NCBI RefSeq assembly: GCF_041916975.1
Contig: NZ_JAYRYK010000001.1
Span: forward strand, 1,006,270 to 1,070,269
DNA: 64,000 bases
Origin: Sphingosinicella sp.
Lineage (GTDB): Bacteria; Pseudomonadota; Alphaproteobacteria; Sphingomonadales; Sphingomonadaceae
Direction: 5' to 3'
Below, piece after piece: positions 6,476-53,711 of the stretch. The notes under the pieces are model-generated. The model saw only the letters and a list, made by a program, of their open reading frames with translations, had not been told where the DNA came from and ran no database searches. Position 1 is the stretch's first letter. Each line of letters opens with the position of its first letter. A program made the translations under genes and the position numbers.

Positions 6476-6985
6476 ATGGCGGGCAGCGTCAACAAGGTCA
6501 TTCTGATCGGCAATCTCGGCGCAGACCCGGAAACGCGTACGATGGGCAGCGGCGGCAAGGTCGTGAACATGCGCATCGCCACCTCCGAGAACTGGACGGA
6601 CAAAGCGAGCGGCGAACGCCGCGAGAAGACCGAGTGGCACACCGTCGTGATCTTCAACGAGAACCTCGCGCGGGTTGCCGAGCAGTATCTGCGCAAGGGC
6701 AGCAAGGTCTATGTCGAAGGCCAGCTCCAGACCCGCAAGTGGCAGGACCAGTCCGGACAGGATCGCTACACGACCGAGATCGTGTTGCAGCGCTTCCGCG
6801 GTGAACTGACGCTGCTCGACGGCCGCGGCGAAGGCGGTGGCGGCGGTGGCAACTATGGCGGCGGCGGATCCGGTGGTGGATCGGGGGGCGGCTTCGGTGG
6901 TGGAAGCGGCGGCGGTGGCGGCGGATCGCGCCAGGGCAGCCGGCCGAGCTTCGACGACGATCTCGACGACGACGTGCCGTTCTGA
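6476..6985 (+). CDS. ssb: Single-stranded DNA-binding protein
   Basis: 169 aa. OB fold ([23 protein letters not shown]), Gly-rich linker and acidic tip [10 protein letters not shown]. Confidence 0.97.
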
Positions 6986-7016
6986 TCGTCCGGCTGTCGG
7001 CACCGTTTACAGTTTG

Positions 7017-45740: not shown

Positions 45741-46538
45741 CTAAGCGCTTGCAAGTGAATCATAAAATGCCGGCGTCAGACCGGCCTCGATTCGCGCCGA
45801 GTCGTTGAAGGGGCGTTTCAACGCACCTTTGAATCGGGAACCTACAAGCGCCTGGAACGTTTGGGCCGGTTCGATTCGCAGCTCGTCGCACAGGTGACGG
45901 AACCAGCGATTCCCCACCGAAACATGAACAATTTCATCGTGGTAGATCAGGTTCAGAATGTCGGCACCAAGGTCGTCTCCCGCTGCACGCAGGCGGGATT
46001 CGGTCGCTGGCGTCACATCGAGCCCGCGCGCTTCGAGCACCTGCGGGACCACGGCGAGCCGAGCGAGCAGGTCGTCGGCGGTCGCCATCGCGGCCTCCCA
46101 CAGGCCGTCGTGGGCGGGGAGATCGCCATAGGCCGCACCGAGGTCGGAGAGCCGATCGGCGAGCAATCCGAAATGCCGCGCCTCATCGTCCGCCACCGCC
46201 ACCCAGTCGTCGGTGAAGGCGCGCGGCATCGCTCCGCCGAAGCGGCCCGCGGCGTCCCACGCGAGATCGATGGCGTTGAACTCGATGTGCGCGAGCGCGT
46301 GGAGCAGCGCGATCCGGCTGCGCTCAGACCCCGCCCGGCCCCGCTTCGGCATCCGCGAGGGCGGCAGCAGTTCGGGGCGCGGCGGACGCGCAGGGCGATC
46401 CGGCATCGGCACGTCGTAAACGGCGGCGAGTTCGCCCGCACGCCAGCGCGCCGCATGGTGCCGCGAGAGCCGGGCCTTTTCTGCCGGGTCGGCCGTCAGC
46501 AGAACGGCCGCGGCCGCCGCGCCAATCGTGTCAGCCAA
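45741..46538 (-). CDS. DUF455 ferritin-like (MiaE-like) protein
   Basis: LLHALAHIEFNAIDLAWDA...DDEARHF...VPQVLEARGLD...IYHDEIVHV. Confidence 0.75.
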   Translation of the reverse strand: MADTIGAAAAAVLLTADPAEKARLSRHHAARWRAGELAAVYDVPMPDRPARPPRPELLPPSRMPKRGRAGSERSRIALLHALAHIEFNAIDLAWDAAGRFGGAMPRAFTDDWVAVADDEARHFGLLADRLSDLGAAYGDLPAHDGLWEAAMATADDLLARLAVVPQVLEARGLDVTPATESRLRAAGDDLGADILNLIYHDEIVHVSVGNRWFRHLCDELRIEPAQTFQALVGSRFKGALKRPFNDSARIEAGLTPAFYDSLASA

Positions 46539-46995
46539 GCGTCTGCGCCGCCTTCAGCACGGCTTCGGCATGGCCGGGCACCTTCACGTTGTGCCAAACC
46601 TCGGCGATTTTGCCGTCGCGGCCGATGAGGAAGGTGGCGCGCTCGATGCCCATGTATTTGCGGCCGTAGAGCGTCTTTTCGACCCAGACGCCGTAAGCCT
46701 CGATGGTCTTCGCATCGGGATCCGAGCCGAGCTTCACGCCGAGCTCGTGCTTCGCGCGGAACTTCCCGTGCTTCGCGACCGTGTCCTTCGAAACGCCGAG
46801 CACGACGGTATCCGCCTTTGCGAACGCCGGGAGGAGCCCGGTGAAGTCAATGGCCTCTCGCGTACAGCCGGACGTGTCATCCTTGGGATAGAAATAGAGC
46901 ACGAGCTTCTTGCCCGCGAAATCCTTCAGAGAGAGCGGCCCCTCCTCGCTGTCGAGCGTGAAGGCGGGGGCTTTCGAACCGGGCTTCGTCATCAT
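46531..46995 (-). CDS. bcp: Peroxiredoxin Bcp (thiol peroxidase)
   Basis: APAFTL...LVLYFYPKDDTSGCTREA peroxidatic-Cys motif. Start overlaps the glnE stop. Confidence 0.92.
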   Translation of the reverse strand: MMTKPGSKAPAFTLDSEEGPLSLKDFAGKKLVLYFYPKDDTSGCTREAIDFTGLLPAFAKADTVVLGVSKDTVAKHGKFRAKHELGVKLGSDPDAKTIEAYGVWVEKTLYGRKYMGIERATFLIGRDGKIAEVWHNVKVPGHAEAVLKAAQTLG

Positions 46996-49769
46996 CGTGC
47001 CTTTCGTTTGACCGCGAACACCGCCTCCCAGGCGGCAAGGACGGCCCTTTTGGCCTCCTCCAGCGCGGCTTTCAATGCGTCGAAATCGGCCAGGCCTGTC
47101 GCCGCTGCCATCATCGCCTTTGCCGCAACCGGCTGTTTCGGCGGATCCTCGCCCTCGATCAGCCGGAGTACGACGAGAAGCCGCGTCATCAGATCGTGGG
47201 CGCCGAGCACATCTTCGGGCAGCGCCCCCGCCTTCACGAAATGCGCCGTCGCCGCGCCGAGATCGGGATCGAAGCCCTCGCGGCGCGAAAGCTGAAGGAA
47301 ATGCACCATGAATTCGAGATCGATGAGCCCGCCCGGGGCGTGCTTCACATCCCACAGGCCGCCGTCGCGGTGGGCCTTCACCATGTCGCCGCGCATCTCC
47401 AGCACCTCGGCCTTGAAGCGCTCGGGATCGCGGGGTTTCATCAGCGCGGCGGCGATGCCCGCCGAGACGGCCTCTCGGTCCTCCTCCACGCCGTAAACGA
47501 CGCGCGCGCGGGTGAGCGCCATGTGCTCCCAGCTCCAGGCTTCCTCAAGCTGGTAGCGCGCGAACGTGTCGATGTTGACCGCGAGCAGCCCCTGCTGGCC
47601 GGAGGGGCGGAGGCGCGTGTCCACCTCGAACAGCGGCCCCGCCGCCGTGCTGACGGTGAGCGCGCCCGTGAGGCGCTGGCCGAGCCGGTTGAACCATGTC
47701 GTCGCTGGCAGTGCCTTCGCGCCGTCCGACATCGCCTCGTGGTGGCCGCTGAACAGGAATACGAGATCGAGATCGGATTTTTCGGTGAGAATGGCGCCGC
47801 CGTAGCGGCCGAAGCCCAGCACCAGCAGGCGCCCGCCGGAGACGCGCCCGTGCGTTTCGGCGAACTCGGCCTGCACCGCGTCGGCGAGCACGGCGATCGC
47901 GGCGTCGGCAAGCTTGGCGTGATCGCGCCCAACGCGGATCGGGTCCGCGCCACCCTCGATGATCTGCACGCCGAGCTGGAAGCGGCGCTCCGCCACAAAG
48001 CGGCGCACCTCGTCGAGCTTCAGTTCGAGCGCGTCGTGGCGGCGCAGGCGCGCGCGCAGCATATCGGTGAGGTCTTCCGTACACGGCAGCGGCGCGAACG
48101 CCTCGTTCGACAACATGATGTCGACGATCTCCGGCCGCCGCGCGAGCTTGCCCGCGAGCACCGGGGCCAGTTCCAGCACGCGCGCGAGCAGAAGCGCGAC
48201 GCGGGGGTTTGCCTCGATGAGCGCGAAGAACTGGATCGACGAGGGCAGCGCGCCGAGGAAATCGTCGAAGCGCAGCAGCGCCTCGCGGCCCGTTCCCGCT
48301 TCCGCGAAGGCTTTGACGAGACCGGGGAGTGCGCTTTCAAGCTCGCGCTGGGCCGCATCGCTGCGCAGCGCGCGATAGCTGCGGTCGCGCCAGCGGGCGA
48401 TGAGGTCGGCAAGGTCGGCGTGCGGGCCGATCCCGGCTTTCTTGAGCGCGGCCTTGAGCTGCGCAGGCTGGCGCGGCAACCGGTCCACCTCCGCCTCGGC
48501 GATGAGCGCGTCGTAGATGCGGCCGACGGCGGTCGCGTGGCGCTTGATCTCGCGCTCCATCGCCGCCCAGTCGCGGTAGCCCGCAAGTGCCGCCAGATCC
48601 TTGCGTTCGGGCGCGCGCGTCGGGATCTGGTGCGTCTGCGCGTCTTCCAGCATCTGGAGGCGATGTTCCGCAGTACGCAGGGCACGGTAGGCGTTGGCGA
48701 GCGTTTCGGCCTCATCGGGCTTGATGCGCTCCGCCGCGACCAGCGCCGCGAGCGCGTCCAGCGTCGCGGGCTGGCGCAGCGTCCAATCGCGCCCGCCAAA
48801 GATCAGCTGGTGGATCTGCGCGAAGAACTCGACCTCGCGGATGCCCCCGCGCCCGCGCTTCAGGCAATAGCCGGGGCCGACCTCCTGCCGCTCGTCGTAA
48901 TGATCACGGATCATCAACGACATGTCCTGAATGTCGCGCACCGCCGTGTAGTCGAGCGAGCGGCGCCAGACGAACGGTTCGATTGCGGCGAGGAAATCGT
49001 CGCCCATCTTCACGTCGCCACCCACGGCGCGCGCGCGGATGAACGCCGCGCGCTCCCACGCCAGCGCTTCGGACTGGTAATAGGTCTCAGCCCCCCGGAT
49101 CGGCATGGCGATCGGCGTCACCTCGGAAGCCGGACGCAGACGGAGATCGACGCGAAACACGTAGCCACCCGAATCGCGCGTCTGCATCAGCTCGACCATG
49201 CGGCGGGCGATGCGGACGGCAGTATTGTCCGGGTCGTCACCCTCGCGCACGACGAGCCGATCGCGGTCGTAGAGCAGGATCAGGTCGACATCGCTCGAAT
49301 AGTTGAGCTCGCGGCTGCCGAGCTTGCCGAGCGCGATGGCGGTAAAGCCATCCGGCTCCGCGCCGGGAATGCGCTCGTCTACGGCGATGCGGATCGCGCG
49401 GTCGATGGCGCGGTCAGCAAGGTCCGAAAGCGCCGCTGTTACCTTTTCGAGCGGCCAGCGGCCGGAAATGTCGGCGAGCGCGATGGCAATAGCCGCGATC
49501 CGCTTCGCCTCGCGCATCGCGGCACCATCTGCATCCGGGGCGGCGAGCAGTGCCAGCGCCGTTTCCATCAGCGGTTCGGGGCCTTCCGCAAGGTAACGCA
49601 GGAGGACTTCGTCCTCGCGGCGCATCAGCGAGCGCAGGTACGGAGAGTGCGCCCATGCGCGGGCACAGGCGTCCACGTCCTCAGGCACATCCTCAGGCGT
49701 GCCGGTAACGCCGGCTTCGGCAAGGATACGTTGAAGTTCGGCCGGCAGCGCTGGCGTCGTCTCCGCCAA
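46992..49769 (-). CDS. glnE: Bifunctional glutamine synthetase adenylyltransferase / adenylyl-removing enzyme
   Basis: 925 aa with two NTase repeats (LGKLGSRELNYSSDVDLI and GFGRYGGAILTEKSDLDLVF). The start is TTG 49769 as given by the track. Confidence 0.95.
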   Translation of the reverse strand: MAETTPALPAELQRILAEAGVTGTPEDVPEDVDACARAWAHSPYLRSLMRREDEVLLRYLAEGPEPLMETALALLAAPDADGAAMREAKRIAAIAIALADISGRWPLEKVTAALSDLADRAIDRAIRIAVDERIPGAEPDGFTAIALGKLGSRELNYSSDVDLILLYDRDRLVVREGDDPDNTAVRIARRMVELMQTRDSGGYVFRVDLRLRPASEVTPIAMPIRGAETYYQSEALAWERAAFIRARAVGGDVKMGDDFLAAIEPFVWRRSLDYTAVRDIQDMSLMIRDHYDERQEVGPGYCLKRGRGGIREVEFFAQIHQLIFGGRDWTLRQPATLDALAALVAAERIKPDEAETLANAYRALRTAEHRLQMLEDAQTHQIPTRAPERKDLAALAGYRDWAAMEREIKRHATAVGRIYDALIAEAEVDRLPRQPAQLKAALKKAGIGPHADLADLIARWRDRSYRALRSDAAQRELESALPGLVKAFAEAGTGREALLRFDDFLGALPSSIQFFALIEANPRVALLLARVLELAPVLAGKLARRPEIVDIMLSNEAFAPLPCTEDLTDMLRARLRRHDALELKLDEVRRFVAERRFQLGVQIIEGGADPIRVGRDHAKLADAAIAVLADAVQAEFAETHGRVSGGRLLVLGFGRYGGAILTEKSDLDLVFLFSGHHEAMSDGAKALPATTWFNRLGQRLTGALTVSTAAGPLFEVDTRLRPSGQQGLLAVNIDTFARYQLEEAWSWEHMALTRARVVYGVEEDREAVSAGIAAALMKPRDPERFKAEVLEMRGDMVKAHRDGGLWDVKHAPGGLIDLEFMVHFLQLSRREGFDPDLGAATAHFVKAGALPEDVLGAHDLMTRLLVVLRLIEGEDPPKQPVAAKAMMAAATGLADFDALKAALEEAKRAVLAAWEAVFAVKRKAR

Positions 49770-49783
49770 GGAGAACCCTTTCG

Positions 49784-50530
49784 TTATTCGCGCGCCAGCT
49801 GATCCACCTGTCCCATGATCTCGTCAAGCGCGGTCGTGCCCGATGCGGTCGAACCGCGCCGCGAGGGCAGCTTCCCTTCCGCGATGACCAGCTCGAGCGC
49901 AGCGCGGCCTCGCGCGACGCGGCTCTTGATGGTGCCGACCGCACAATCGCATATGGTCGCCGCCTCCTCATAGGCAAAGCCGCCCGCGCCGACGAGGATC
50001 AGCGCCTCGCGCTGCGCCGACGGCAGTTCGAGGAGCGCGCGCTGCAGATCGGCAAGCTCGATCTGCTTGTCCTGCCCGGCAGGGGCGGAGAGCAGGCGAT
50101 CGGCGACGAGTTCGTCCCATTCCCCCTTGAAGCGCGAGCGCCGCATCTGGCTGAGGAAGAGGTTGCGAAGGATGATGAAGGTCCAAGCGCGAATGTTCGT
50201 CCCTGCCTGAAAGCGATCTCGTGCCGCCCACGCCTTCAGCAGCGTTTCCTGCACGAGGTCGTCCGCCATGTCGCGATTGCCCGAAAGCGAACGCCCAAAG
50301 GCGCGCAGCTGCGGGATGATCGCCGAAAGCTCGTCTTTGAACGCCTTGTCGGAAAGCTGGCCCTTCTTCGGCTCTTCGGGGCTCGATTCGAGCCTCGCGA
50401 GCAGGTCGAGAAACGCCTGCGGCAGGGGCTGCGTCGCCGCATCGGCATAGGCCGAGCGCAGGAAGCCCCCGATCACGTCCGGACTCACGGGACTGGTGCC
50501 GTCCTGACGGCCGATCCTTTGTTCGATCAT
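49784..50530 (-). CDS. ecfG: EcfG-type ECF sigma factor carrying an in-frame N-terminal NepR-like anti-sigma motif
   Basis: Residues ~61-248 have DELSAIIPQLRAFGRSLSGNRDMADDLVQETLLKAWAARDRFQAGTNIRAWTFIILRNLF and a region-4 HTH (ECF15/EcfG hallmarks). Residues 19-48, VIGGFLRSAYADAATQPLPQAFLDLLARLE, match the NepR core. No stop or usable start codon lies between them. GAGGGG lies upstream of ATG 50530. Confidence 0.8.
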   Translation of the reverse strand: MIEQRIGRQDGTSPVSPDVIGGFLRSAYADAATQPLPQAFLDLLARLESSPEEPKKGQLSDKAFKDELSAIIPQLRAFGRSLSGNRDMADDLVQETLLKAWAARDRFQAGTNIRAWTFIILRNLFLSQMRRSRFKGEWDELVADRLLSAPAGQDKQIELADLQRALLELPSAQREALILVGAGGFAYEEAATICDCAVGTIKSRVARGRAALELVIAEGKLPSRRGSTASGTTALDEIMGQVDQLARE

Positions 50531-50553
50531 AAATTTCCCCTCGGACTCTGGCT

Positions 50554-50694
50554 TCAGCGCGACCAGAAAAACAGCAGCGCCGCGAAGATCACAACGACCA
50601 TCGTGACCGAAAACAGCAGGATGTAGCGGACGATATGAGGGGTTTCCCCTGCCCTCGCCTGGTTCGTCCTCAGTGTTTCGTGGTCCTGTTCCAT
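50554..50694 (-). CDS. Small (46 aa) single-pass membrane protein, hypothetical
   Basis: ATG 50694 is preceded by AGGAG at ~9 nt. MEQDHETLRTNQARAGETPHIVRYILLFSVTMVVVIFAALLFFWSR. Sits between phyR and the sigma gene. Confidence 0.4.
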   Translation of the reverse strand: MEQDHETLRTNQARAGETPHIVRYILLFSVTMVVVIFAALLFFWSR

Positions 50695-50763
50695 GGCCGT
50701 TGGCTCCTGGTTGTGAAGGCTATGCCCCTGCCCGCCCACGCACAAGGCGGCGAAGGCGGACCG

Positions 50764-51558
50764 TCATCGCATCGCCGCGGTGCTGTTGAAGAAAAGCGCC
50801 TGCGCAATCGCCGCCGAGACGGTCGAACGCTGGAACGGCTTTGTGATGAGGAAGGTCGGCTCCGGACGCTCGCCGGTGAGCAAGCGTTCCGGAAAGGCCG
50901 TGATGAAGATCACGGGCACCGAGAAGCGGCCAAGGATATCCTTCACCGCATCGATGCCGGAGCTGTCGTCGGCAAGCTGGATGTCCGCGAGCACGAGCCC
51001 CGGCTCGGCGTCGATCGCCAGCGCCACCGCCTCATCGCGCGTTACCGCGATGCCGGTCACGTCGTGGCCGAGATCGCGCACGATGCTGTCGAGGTCCATG
51101 CCGATGATCGGCTCGTCCTCGATGATCAGTACCCGCGTGCGCGTCTGCCGACTGATTTCGTCCATCGCTTCCTTGACGAGGCCCGAGACACTGTCCGGGT
51201 CCAGATCGATGAGATAGCCGACGTCTTCGTGCGAAAATCCCTCCATCGCGGTCAGCAGCAGCGCCTGCCGTGACAGCGGCGTGATCGCCGCGAGACGTTC
51301 GTGGGCGGCGCGTTCGAAATCGGATGCCGCCGGTTCCTCCGAATCCACATCGATGTTCGAAGACGCCCAAATGGCGTGGAAGACGCGGTAGAGCGCCAGC
51401 CGTTCATCCACATCGCTCGGGAAATCCTGCGGCGCGCTAACGATCGCTTCCAGTGCCGCGCGCACATAGGTGTCTCCGTCACGCTGAGTTCCCGTCAGCG
51501 CCCGCGCATATCGGCGGAGCAACGGAAGATGCGGCGCGAGCTTCGCTGCCAATGTCAT
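50764..51558 (-). CDS. phyR: Anti-anti-sigma response regulator PhyR
   Basis: 264 aa. N-terminal sigma-like domain (LPLLRRYARALTG...) plus a C-terminal receiver (RVLIIEDEPII...VLADIQLAD...VIFITA). Confidence 0.93.
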   Translation of the reverse strand: MTLAAKLAPHLPLLRRYARALTGTQRDGDTYVRAALEAIVSAPQDFPSDVDERLALYRVFHAIWASSNIDVDSEEPAASDFERAAHERLAAITPLSRQALLLTAMEGFSHEDVGYLIDLDPDSVSGLVKEAMDEISRQTRTRVLIIEDEPIIGMDLDSIVRDLGHDVTGIAVTRDEAVALAIDAEPGLVLADIQLADDSSGIDAVKDILGRFSVPVIFITAFPERLLTGERPEPTFLITKPFQRSTVSAAIAQALFFNSTAAMR

Positions 51559-51633
51559 GTGTTCGTCTGCCTCCTCGAAACCCGGACCACCCCCGAATGG
51601 TGGCCGCCCCACGCGAAAGTGGCGGCAAGCATT

Positions 51634-51660
51634 GGAACGGTCGAGGCTTTCTTTTGTTTC
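51634..51660. promoter_or_regulatory. Overlapping face-to-face EcfG-like promoter elements in the phyR / kinase divergent spacer
   Basis: The + strand reads GGAAC-N16-TGTT (51634-51658). The - strand reads GAAAC-N16-CGTT (51660-51636). Each has one mismatch to GGAAC-N16/17-CGTT. Confidence 0.4.
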
Positions 51661-51687
51661 GCCCCATATCTAAGTTCGTTGAGGACA

Positions 51688-53361
51688 ATGGCTGAAAAAC
51701 CAGAAATCCACGGTTCGCGCCAAGATTCAGGCCAAAGTTCGGGCCAGAGTTCACGCGCGCGGCGCTCGCTGTCGTTTCAGCTTGCGGTCGCGCTTACGCT
51801 GGCTCTGCTGCCGATCGGCATTCTCGCCGCCGTGTTGGCTGCCGACGGCATCCGCAGCGCGCGCGAGGCTGAACTGGTGCGCGCCGAAAACCAGTTCCGC
51901 GCCACTGCCCGCGTCGTCGACGATCTGCTCAGCGTCGATTTCCTTGTCCTGCGTGCACTGCTTCGCAACGAGAGCGGCCTTCACGAGGGCCGAACGTGCA
52001 ACGCAGAGGCGGCAAACGCGCTCGACGATGCGGAAACCTTCGATGCGATCGTCTGGGCCGACGGTCTTGGCCGACCGATCTGCGAAAGCCGCGGCGGCAT
52101 CAAACCATCCGCTGCCGAGCTCACCCGCCTTGCAGCGGAGAGCGAGCGCGAACACCTGATCTGGCCGGGAGGCGATCACGTGTTCTTCGCGGTGCGCGAG
52201 GAACCGGAAACCGGAAAGCCCGGGCTTGTCGTTGCAACGGCATCGGTTTCGCGCCTGAAAGCGCGCCTGCGCGAGATCGCGGCGATGGAAGGCGCGGCCA
52301 CCGTATGGCTGGGCGACAAGCCCATCCTCGGCAATCCGCCGGATGACGCCGCGGCGCCCGGCGGACTCCTTACCGTGCGGCGCCTCGCGGAGTCCGGCGG
52401 GCGCGATCAGGTGGTCGCGGCGGGACCGCTTTCGATCGCGCCGTTCGCGCTCACCACGGTCGTTCCCGCAACCCGTCTTGCGGTTGCAGACGTGTTGGCG
52501 ATCGCAGCGCCTTCGCTGATGTGGATCGCCGCGCTGCTCATCGGCTGGATGGTCGTGCGGCGCTTCGTCGTGCGCCCGCTGCAAAACATGGCAAGCGGCG
52601 TACGCGCATATGGTGCGGGAGATAATCTTGTGCGCCTTTCCGGGCGCGCCGGGCGAACAGACGAGATGCAGGCCTTCGCCGAAACCTTCGACACGATGGC
52701 TCAGGACATGGCGGAGGCGCGGCATGAGGTGGATGCCGCGCTCAGCGAACAGCGCCGTCTGACGCGCGAAGTCCATCACCGCGTGAAGAATAACCTGCAG
52801 ATCATCGCCAGCCTGATCAGCATCCAGGCGCGCGAGGCAGACGGTGCCGATGTCGCGCGGGCTTATGCCAGCATCCAGATGCGCGTCGGCGCGCTGTCGA
52901 TCGTGCACCGCTGGCTCTATGAGGAAAGCGAAGCGCAGGGTGTCGATTTCACGGCGCTCACCCACGACCTCTGCGCCAGCCTCCAGCAGATCATTCCGAG
53001 CGCGAAGCTCGTTGAGCCCCGTATCAACACGCACCTCGAGCGCCTGCACATCAGCCAGGACGCCGCCGTGCCGCTCGCGTTCCTCATCACCGAGGTGATC
53101 GCGTTCGCCGCCCGTCTTGCCGCGGCGGAGGGCCGTGAAAAGATGGTGATCGACATTCATGTCCGCCGCACCGAAACCGGCGGCGAATTGCAAATCTGCT
53201 CGGATGCGTTCGGAGAGGACGATCCGCTGGCACCGACAGAGACACGTGCCGCCGCGCGCATCGTGAACGGCATGGTCCGCCAGCTCCGCGGGCACCTCAA
53301 CTTCGATGCCGACGTACCCTGCTATACCGTAGGCTTCCCCCTCAAACCGCGGGTGGGATAA
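51688..53361 (+). CDS. Membrane sensor histidine kinase, HisKA_2/HWE type (PhyK-like)
   Basis: Two TM segments flank a periplasmic domain, then a HAMP-like linker, the H-box LTREVHHRVKNNLQIIASLISIQ and an ATPase domain. GAGGA lies upstream of ATG 51688. Confidence 0.85.
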   Translation: MAEKPEIHGSRQDSGQSSGQSSRARRSLSFQLAVALTLALLPIGILAAVLAADGIRSAREAELVRAENQFRATARVVDDLLSVDFLVLRALLRNESGLHEGRTCNAEAANALDDAETFDAIVWADGLGRPICESRGGIKPSAAELTRLAAESEREHLIWPGGDHVFFAVREEPETGKPGLVVATASVSRLKARLREIAAMEGAATVWLGDKPILGNPPDDAAAPGGLLTVRRLAESGGRDQVVAAGPLSIAPFALTTVVPATRLAVADVLAIAAPSLMWIAALLIGWMVVRRFVVRPLQNMASGVRAYGAGDNLVRLSGRAGRTDEMQAFAETFDTMAQDMAEARHEVDAALSEQRRLTREVHHRVKNNLQIIASLISIQAREADGADVARAYASIQMRVGALSIVHRWLYEESEAQGVDFTALTHDLCASLQQIIPSAKLVEPRINTHLERLHISQDAAVPLAFLITEVIAFAARLAAAEGREKMVIDIHVRRTETGGELQICSDAFGEDDPLAPTETRAAARIVNGMVRQLRGHLNFDADVPCYTVGFPLKPRVG

Positions 53362-53377: not shown

Positions 53378-53402
53378 GGAACCATGCCGGTGATTCGCCG
53401 TT
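53378..53402 (+). promoter_or_regulatory. Perfect EcfG-type promoter GGAAC-N16-CGTT
   Basis: GGAAC (53378-53382), catgccggtgattcgc, CGTT (53399-53402). Located 17 nt after the kinase stop, in a non-coding spacer beside the general-stress locus. Confidence 0.6.
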
Positions 53403-53500: not shown

Positions 53501-53579
53501 GTGCTGCTCCCGGAACGGTCCGATGAAACCTATTGAGGCCACGACCGTTTTTCATGGGCAGTTTATCTGGAGAATGAAC

Positions 53580-53711
53580 ATGCGCACGAAAACGGGTACC
53601 AAACTCGCAGTCATCATGGCCTTGCTGGCCATCACCGCCTGCAACACGGTCGAAGGCGTCGGCAAGGACGTGCAATCGGCCGGTGAAACGGTCGAGGACG
53701 CGGCCAACTAA
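53580..53711 (+). CDS. Entericidin A/B-family small lipoprotein
   Basis: 43 aa. MRTKTGTKLAVIMALLAITACNTVEGVGKDVQSAGETVEDAAN: lipobox plus the GxGxD.....G motif. GGAGA lies 7 nt upstream of ATG 53580. Confidence 0.75.
   Translation: MRTKTGTKLAVIMALLAITACNTVEGVGKDVQSAGETVEDAAN

Follow-up and report, generated by a model that had tools for sequence, protein, structure and literature searches.

In the general stress response of alphaproteobacteria, the response regulator PhyR sequesters NepR, the anti-sigma factor of EcfG. A NepR-like sequence can also be part of EcfG itself: all six EcfG paralogues of Methylobacterium extorquens AM1 (EcfG1-6) carry an N-terminal NepR-like extension roughly 55 amino acids (aa) long, which has been taken for the product of an ancient fusion of nepR with ecfG (Francez-Charlot et al. 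2016, PMC4814048). In two-hybrid as well as in vitro assays, this extension keeps free NepR from binding; its function was given as "currently not known", and it was stated to be absent outside Methylobacteriaceae (PMC4814048). In Sphingomonas melonis Fr1, the genes of the partner switch lie in the order phyT (#1443), nepR (#1444), phyR (#1445), #1446, ecfG (#1447) and nepR2 (#1448) (PMC6599016). Cis-acting extensions are also found in other extracytoplasmic function (ECF) sigma factors, C-terminal in the CorE-type and ECF41/42-type proteins and N-terminal in SigC/ECF36s4 and BldN/ECF121 (PMC7826278, PMC8999054). Here we analysed a 64,000-nucleotide stretch of DNA (the window) from a Sphingosinicella sp., in which an ecfG gene is preceded in frame by a NepR-coding segment. 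[quoted passage not shown] A preliminary description of the same DNA had recognized the single polypeptide, for which the intact frame and its conservation in relatives now speak; it had also considered that no tethered NepR-EcfG had been described, which the published Methylobacteriaceae proteins contradict (PMC4814048).

The nepR-ecfG fusion gene (49784..50530, minus strand) starts at an ATG at 50530 and comprises 248 uninterrupted codons and a stop, with a Shine-Dalgarno-like GAGGGG (50537..50542, minus strand) 6 nt before the ATG, in agreement with the preliminary description. The Pfam NepR family (PF18557) matched aa 20-49 with 31.3 bits against a gathering score of 25.7 (E 1.6e-7), over profile positions 4-33 of 35, so the NepR core previously placed at residues 19-48 passed alignment to a NepR profile. 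Together with the helices modelled by AlphaFold2 (aa 17-27 and 38-49), this match delimits a NepR-like two-helix module at aa 17-49 (50384..50482, minus strand). Aligned with S. melonis NepR, aa 20-47 correspond to residues 28-55 of 2lfw_B, and L24, R25 and Y28 fall on L32, R33 and Y36. A PF18557 match above threshold and two predicted amphipathic helices bearing the partner-binding residues make this segment a NepR domain; being the N-terminus of a 248-aa sigma factor, it is not a free-standing NepR protein of about 60-90 aa.

The remainder of the protein, which the preliminary description had assigned to EcfG/ECF15 from about residue 61 onwards, is indeed such a sigma factor. Pfam placed Sigma70_r2 at aa 72-133 and Sigma70_r4_2 at aa 161-212, a two-domain arrangement without sigma3, and PhyR_sigma2, the family that mimics EcfG, matched as well; NCBIfam subfamily models matched the sigma part below their cut-offs. 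The best solved relative is 5uxx_A, the EcfG-type RpoE of Bartonella quintana co-crystallized with NepR (E 2.8e-43). With sigma2 and sigma4 only, EcfG-type proteins as closest relatives and a link to phyR in an alphaproteobacterium, the sigma core (49886..50350, minus strand) belongs to ECF15/EcfG. It is 73-77% identical to unfused sphingomonad EcfG, with which it also shares a C-terminal tail (49787..49885, minus strand) ending in a conserved helix modelled at aa 234-247. Only at three positions of the core, around the start of sigma4, do fused and unfused sphingomonad EcfG have different fixed residues: Q156, L162 and A172 (Q/L/A in the fused proteins, H/M/P in the unfused ones).

Homologue alignments and codon comparisons place a variable linker at aa 50-60 (50351..50383, minus strand) between the two parts. 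Its sequence, SSPEEPKKGQLS, is as first described, and its length of 12 residues is to be reduced to about 10, the alignment with unfused EcfG beginning by L59. As had been noted, the window gene has no ATG, GTG or TTG in frame between the LR motif of the NepR module and region 2. The possibility of a lost stop or a frameshift, raised earlier, was addressed with contigs from four independent public runs (one identical, one metatranscriptomic) spanning 49700-51750, in which no indel was found. The sole change in the linker among them was 50378 G>A, at the third position of the Pro51 codon, which is synonymous by frame reading.

The fused architecture is widely shared among relatives. A protein search with the fusion protein returned more than 100 protein clusters of 240-263 aa, 65-95% identical over at least 92% of the query, many of them with a precomputed PF18557 match and one carrying the NCBI name 'NepR family anti-sigma factor [uncultured Sphingosinicella sp.]'. 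When 31 and 113 fused sequences were aligned, G21, A27, A29, L36, F40, L43 and L47 were present in at least 90%; L24, R25, P37 and L44 were invariant in the 113, and Y28, the counterpart of S. melonis Y36, was retained as Y or F. The linker ranged from 12 to about 35 aa (about 8-12 aa for the shortest ones), with no conserved composition and no conserved cleavage motif in these alignments. Codon comparisons among 14 genomes gave a ratio of amino-acid to synonymous differences of 8.2 for the first 16 residues, 1.55 for the NepR segment, 3.1 for the linker and 0.35 for the sigma core; the NepR segment is thus constrained relative to its flanks. By these comparisons, the NepR-EcfG polypeptide is conserved and under selection.

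To follow the fusion at the level of the locus, we used 80 loci from a scan of one genome per species, 81 with the window, mapped by phmmer and hidden Markov models (HMMs). The match extended into the NepR part in the window and in 14 of these loci (L001-L014), from Sphingosinicella, Pacificimonas flava, Sphingoaurantiacus capsulatus and metagenome-assembled genomes (MAGs), the nearest being Sphingosinicella microcystinivorans DSM 19791 (95%). Fused protein matches also came from Polymorphobacter and Glacieibacterium, and all five genera (Sphingosinicella, Pacificimonas, Sphingoaurantiacus, Polymorphobacter and Glacieibacterium) belong to Sphingosinicellaceae. For the remaining 66 loci (from Sphingomonas, Sphingobium and Allosphingosinicella, among others, and including 'Sphingosinicella' terrae and LHD-64) the HMMs found no NepR module in the ecfG open reading frame (ORF); the tblastn match started at residue 48-59 in most of them and earlier in a few. 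The comparison of fused with split loci that had been called for thus gave 15 fused genomes and 66 unfused loci. In all 15 fused genomes an ATG lies 16-32 codons upstream of the LR motif; no internal start is conserved among them, and five have no internal start at all. Two database entries, P0118 (Pacificimonas sp. WHA3) and P0120 (Polymorphobacter megasporae), start at an internal Met in NepR helix 2 and are 214-216 aa long instead of about 260 aa. With starts called inside the NepR module, the fusion is hidden in the annotation of some genomes.

In the window, phyR (50764..51558, minus strand; 264 aa) lies 230 bp upstream of the fusion gene on the same strand and encodes the anti-anti-sigma response regulator, with 367.7 bits to NCBIfam NF006623 (cut-off 240) and Pfam matches to PhyR_sigma2, PhyR_sigma-like and Response_reg. 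In two MAG contigs phyR is split over two frames (L005, 4897-6696; L007, 4957-5797), probably through assembly frameshifts and not as pseudogenes. Between phyR and the fusion gene is a small membrane ORF of 46 aa (50554..50694, minus strand). The preliminary description had taken the co-directional order phyR, small membrane ORF, ecfG to be unusual; it is in fact the standard sphingomonad layout, including that of S. melonis Fr1 (PMC6599016), with the kinase gene and nepR on one strand and phyR, the small membrane ORF and ecfG on the other. Every unfused locus mapped in full had this co-directional order, and nepR lay beside the kinase gene on the opposite strand in all unfused loci except two truncated ones. 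A second, NepR2-like ORF is often found convergent downstream of ecfG, as in many Sphingomonas loci (at about 6600-7000, minus strand). In the window, the slot that holds nepR in other sphingomonads is empty: a gene for a membrane protein with HAMP and HisKA_2/HWE domains (51688..53361, plus strand; Pfam and locus maps) is directly divergent from phyR across a gap of about 130 bp. Its position at the phyR locus makes this kinase-like protein correspond to PhyT/PhyP, the phosphotransferase of S. melonis; no HATPase_c domain was detectable in it with Pfam.

Two NepR HMMs of our own construction found no other NepR-like ORF in the 64-kb window (next best E = 5.3), which bears out the earlier statement that the locus has no separate nepR. 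Among the 15 fused genomes, a free nepR beside the kinase gene is kept in nine (L003, L005-L011 and L013) and absent in six: three from Sphingosinicella (the window, L001 and L002), two from Pacificimonas (L004 and L012) and one MAG (L014). In all six, the kinase gene is directly divergent from phyR, with a gap of about 130 bp. Within 6 kb on either side, the HMMs found no NepR-like ORF in L001, L002 or L014. Pacificimonas retains a NepR2-like ORF downstream of the fusion gene (L004, 6774-6947, minus strand; L012, 6760-7395, minus strand); within the sequence examined, this ORF is absent from the window (where glnE takes its place), from the Sphingosinicella loci and from L014.

Neighbour joining of the sigma domain placed the fused genes in one clade nested within unfused sphingomonad EcfG (70/100 bootstraps), which speaks for one fusion event, of the resident primary ecfG, in an ancestor of Sphingosinicellaceae. 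With nepR on the far side of phyR and on the opposite strand, the fusion did not arise by simple loss of a stop codon between neighbours; judging from the gene order, about 170 bp coding for a NepR module were inserted between the small ORF and ecfG. That nine fused genomes keep a free nepR indicates that the fusion arose while free NepR was present, its gene still beside the kinase gene, and not as a replacement for it. Several descendants, including the lineage of the window, would later have lost the free gene. The two main nepR-less groups clustered together in just 12/100 bootstraps, which suggests that free nepR was lost from the locus repeatedly, at least two and probably three independent times. 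The free NepRs of the fused clade score slightly above most other sphingomonad NepRs against the fused-NepR HMM; as to the origin of the module, the segment is too short to choose between local duplication and import.

The above findings raised the question of what the module does. Our best inference, to which we give a probability of roughly 55%, is that the sigma factor is inhibited in cis by its own NepR module and that this inhibition is relieved by phosphorylated PhyR (PhyR~P). Without stress, the N-terminal two-helix module would bind the sigma2 and sigma4 surfaces of its own chain and keep the sigma factor off core RNA polymerase. Upon stress, PhyR would be phosphorylated via the PhyT-like protein, the sigma-like domain of PhyR~P would capture the tethered NepR module, and the freed sigma domains could bind RNA polymerase. 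The most economical reading of a locus that retains phyR and a PhyT-like gene is a tethered anti-sigma factor to which PhyR~P responds. The domains and intact frame of the gene, the conserved NepR core beside a freely varying linker, and a perfect EcfG-type promoter motif at the same locus also speak for this model. In S. melonis, where the role of PhyT in the stress response has also been treated, excessive activation of this response is lethal (PMC5898713), and lineages without nepR would therefore need another brake. In S. melonis NepR, L32 and Y36 are needed for activity and R33 is not (PMC6599016). For EcfG1 and EcfG5 of M. extorquens, binding by free NepR requires that their NepR-like extension be removed first (PMC4814048), which fits an extension that occupies the site in cis.

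Several observations weigh against cis-inhibition. We ran AlphaFold2 with 113 fused homologues (predicted local distance difference test, pLDDT, 73.7; predicted template modelling score, pTM, 0.48; NepR helices at a pLDDT of about 70) and with 133 sequences including distant fused clusters (pLDDT 84.5; pTM 0.41; NepR helices at 84-87). The models had confident local helices and no confident domain arrangement, and the modelled arrangement of sigma2 and sigma4 was unlike that of NepR-bound EcfG in 5uxx (Foldseek; template modelling score 0.43-0.45, root-mean-square deviation 8-20 Å). As predictions, they neither support nor refute docking in cis. The EcfG-type promoter motifs in front of phyR each carry one mismatch. 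Full-length EcfG of M. extorquens is still regulated and pulls down NepR in vivo (PMC4814048), and an inhibitor within the same molecule resists displacement by PhyR~P more strongly. The scan of this genome for NepR covers 64 kb, and a free nepR elsewhere is possible, as the nepR paralogues of Sphingopyxis illustrate (PMC7083833). Finally, most fused genomes (the nine named above) have a free nepR as well, and the module may thus not be the chief inhibitor.

The last two points give some weight to a role of the extension as a modulator and not a brake, which we regard as possible though rather unlikely. The extension would then tune the system, for instance by reducing the access of free NepR or by pre-docking PhyR~P, and the true anti-sigma factor would be a free NepR whose gene lies elsewhere in the genome. 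Unlinked or second copies of NepR are known in sphingomonads (PMC7083833, PMC6599016), Pacificimonas keeps its downstream NepR2-like ORF, and M. extorquens has a free NepR besides its extended EcfGs (PMC4814048), where the extension may likewise modulate. Such a role is harder to reconcile with the empty surroundings of the fusion gene in the window (64 kb) and in L001, L002 and L014 (6 kb on either side), and the loss of the canonical nepR slot in at least two, probably three lineages is easier to explain if the fused module suffices.

It is unlikely that the module acts in trans, with the NepR part of one molecule bound to the sigma part of another in head-to-tail dimers, or that it mainly titrates PhyR~P in the manner of NepR2. 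The shortest linkers would suit such an arrangement, as would the lack of a confident AlphaFold2 placement of the module on the sigma domains of the same chain, and NepR2 of S. melonis binds PhyR and apparently not EcfG (PMC6599016). Tethering, however, favours intramolecular contacts, and a linker that is free to vary in length gives no sign of a fixed dimer geometry. Very improbable is a pro-sigma factor of the BldN kind, from which proteolysis would release a NepR peptide and a mature sigma factor: cleaved N-terminal extensions are known in ECF121/BldN (PMC7826278) and the linker is unconstrained and predicted to be disordered, but it has no conserved cleavage motif, and EcfG1 of M. extorquens was seen only at full length and in a form 14 residues shorter that stems from a second start codon and not from processing (PMC4814048). 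An artefact, in which a lost stop, a frameshift or a mis-called start mimics a fusion and the sigma factor is made alone, would find a parallel in the shorter products that some pipelines call from the internal Met in NepR helix 2, and is effectively refuted by the indel-free assemblies, by a frame kept in 15 genomes and more than 100 clusters despite indels in the linker, by the lack of a conserved internal start (with five genomes having none) and by the constraint on the NepR segment relative to its flanks.

Cis-inhibition could go further in Sphingosinicella. We put forward, tentatively, that the fused module may be the only NepR in the cell; the three-protein switch would then be reduced to two, with PhyR~P opening a self-inhibited sigma factor and maybe staying attached to it on RNA polymerase. 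If this is true, the recurrent disappearance of free nepR from fused lineages would show tethering to be enough. If the module is the sole brake, a trans-acting anti-sigma factor would have been internalized while its anti-anti-sigma factor was kept, and this would be relevant to the design of single-chain switchable sigma factors. What the NepR-like extension does for EcfG has been a standing question since 2009/2016, and Sphingosinicella offers a natural background without a free nepR at the locus for clean tests of the role of the tethered module.

According to the model, phyR, the small ORF and the fusion gene would probably form one autoregulated transcript. A search for the EcfG-type promoter pattern gave 6 matches against 1.95 expected. 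Two promoter-like motifs with one mismatch each, read from the sequence, overlap back to back in the intergenic region between phyR and the kinase-like gene (51634..51660, both strands), GGAAC-N16-TGTT on the plus strand toward the kinase-like gene and GAAAC-N16-CGTT on the minus strand toward phyR, and the pair is kept in L001 and L002 despite changes in the spacer. Directly upstream of the small ORF or of the fusion gene, no EcfG-type promoter with at most one mismatch was found in the window; in L010, L011 and L014, perfect motifs are present at this position. One metatranscriptome contig (50261-51662) takes in the small ORF and phyR along with part of the fusion gene; it fits co-transcription of the three genes, with carry-over of DNA being possible.

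The small membrane ORF occupies the same position in 66 of the 81 sphingomonad stress-response loci and is the positional counterpart of S. melonis #1446, an EcfG-dependent hypothetical protein (PMC6599016). It matched no Pfam family; its product is single-pass, with the pattern M..ARAG.TPH..RY followed by a transmembrane helix. Just beyond the kinase-like gene, a perfect GGAAC-N16-CGTT (53378..53402, plus strand; pattern search) precedes an ORF for an entericidin EcnA/B-family lipoprotein (about 53574-53711, plus strand; PF08085, 38.9 bits). S. melonis has the same arrangement with #1442, a 'small secreted protein' of the EcfG regulon (PMC6599016). On the other side, glnE, for glutamine synthetase adenylyltransferase (46992-49769, minus strand), is directly downstream of the fusion gene, and an ORF that by eye resembles a Bcp-type peroxiredoxin lies at 46531-47355 (minus strand); both are ordinary housekeeping neighbours.

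We also looked for the architecture beyond the close relatives, by searching 1.84 billion cluster representatives with a profile of the fused protein (HMMER). About 21 of the 150 best ECF15 clusters matched from the NepR part on. Ten of these clusters were compared with Pfam NepR: two scored above threshold (P0165, 42.3 bits; P0179, 33.5 bits), five were sub-threshold and three gave no match. The roughly 21 NepR-extended clusters were scattered over several places in the sigma-domain tree, so the fused architecture is recurrent. The two distant fused clusters that we looked up (contexts L081-L083) are orphan genes away from phyR, as in Methylobacterium. Four distant clusters (P0165, P0190, P0208 and P0223), whose genes are not beside phyR, share the C-terminal motif ...AKA.GRPLWIG, and in L082 the fused gene is in a cluster with a PAS-HWE kinase. 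On the sequence evidence, the claim that the extension is confined to Methylobacteriaceae (PMC4814048) does not hold: a NepR-EcfG fusion is characteristic of the phyR-linked primary EcfG throughout one family of sphingomonads, and its range is much wider.

Our literature search found no published description of a sphingomonad NepR-EcfG fusion. What seems undescribed is that the phyR-linked primary EcfG is the fused one, and that free nepR has been lost from the locus while nine sister genomes keep theirs. As in Methylobacterium, an ECF15 sigma factor is preceded in one polypeptide by a NepR-like segment of about 55 aa (here aa 1-58). The Methylobacterium ecfG genes are paralogues away from phyR, without EcfG-type promoters and with a free NepR at the phyR locus (PMC4814048), whereas here the fused gene is the phyR-linked primary ecfG of a member of Sphingomonadales, with no free nepR at the locus. 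Given a sigma core 73-77% identical to unfused sphingomonad EcfG, the sphingomonad fusion is probably independent of that in Methylobacterium. With the partner switch of S. melonis Fr1, the locus shares the PhyT-like kinase, phyR, the small membrane ORF and ecfG, as well as an adjacent gene for a small secreted protein (EcfG-dependent in S. melonis) and identical key residues of NepR; S. melonis Fr1, however, has a free NepR of 62 aa beside phyT and NepR2 next to ecfG, while the window has neither and carries its NepR module inside EcfG. Like the ECF sigma factors with cis-acting extensions, the protein has a regulatory element built into the sigma factor, instead of or besides a separate anti-sigma factor. 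[quoted passage not shown]

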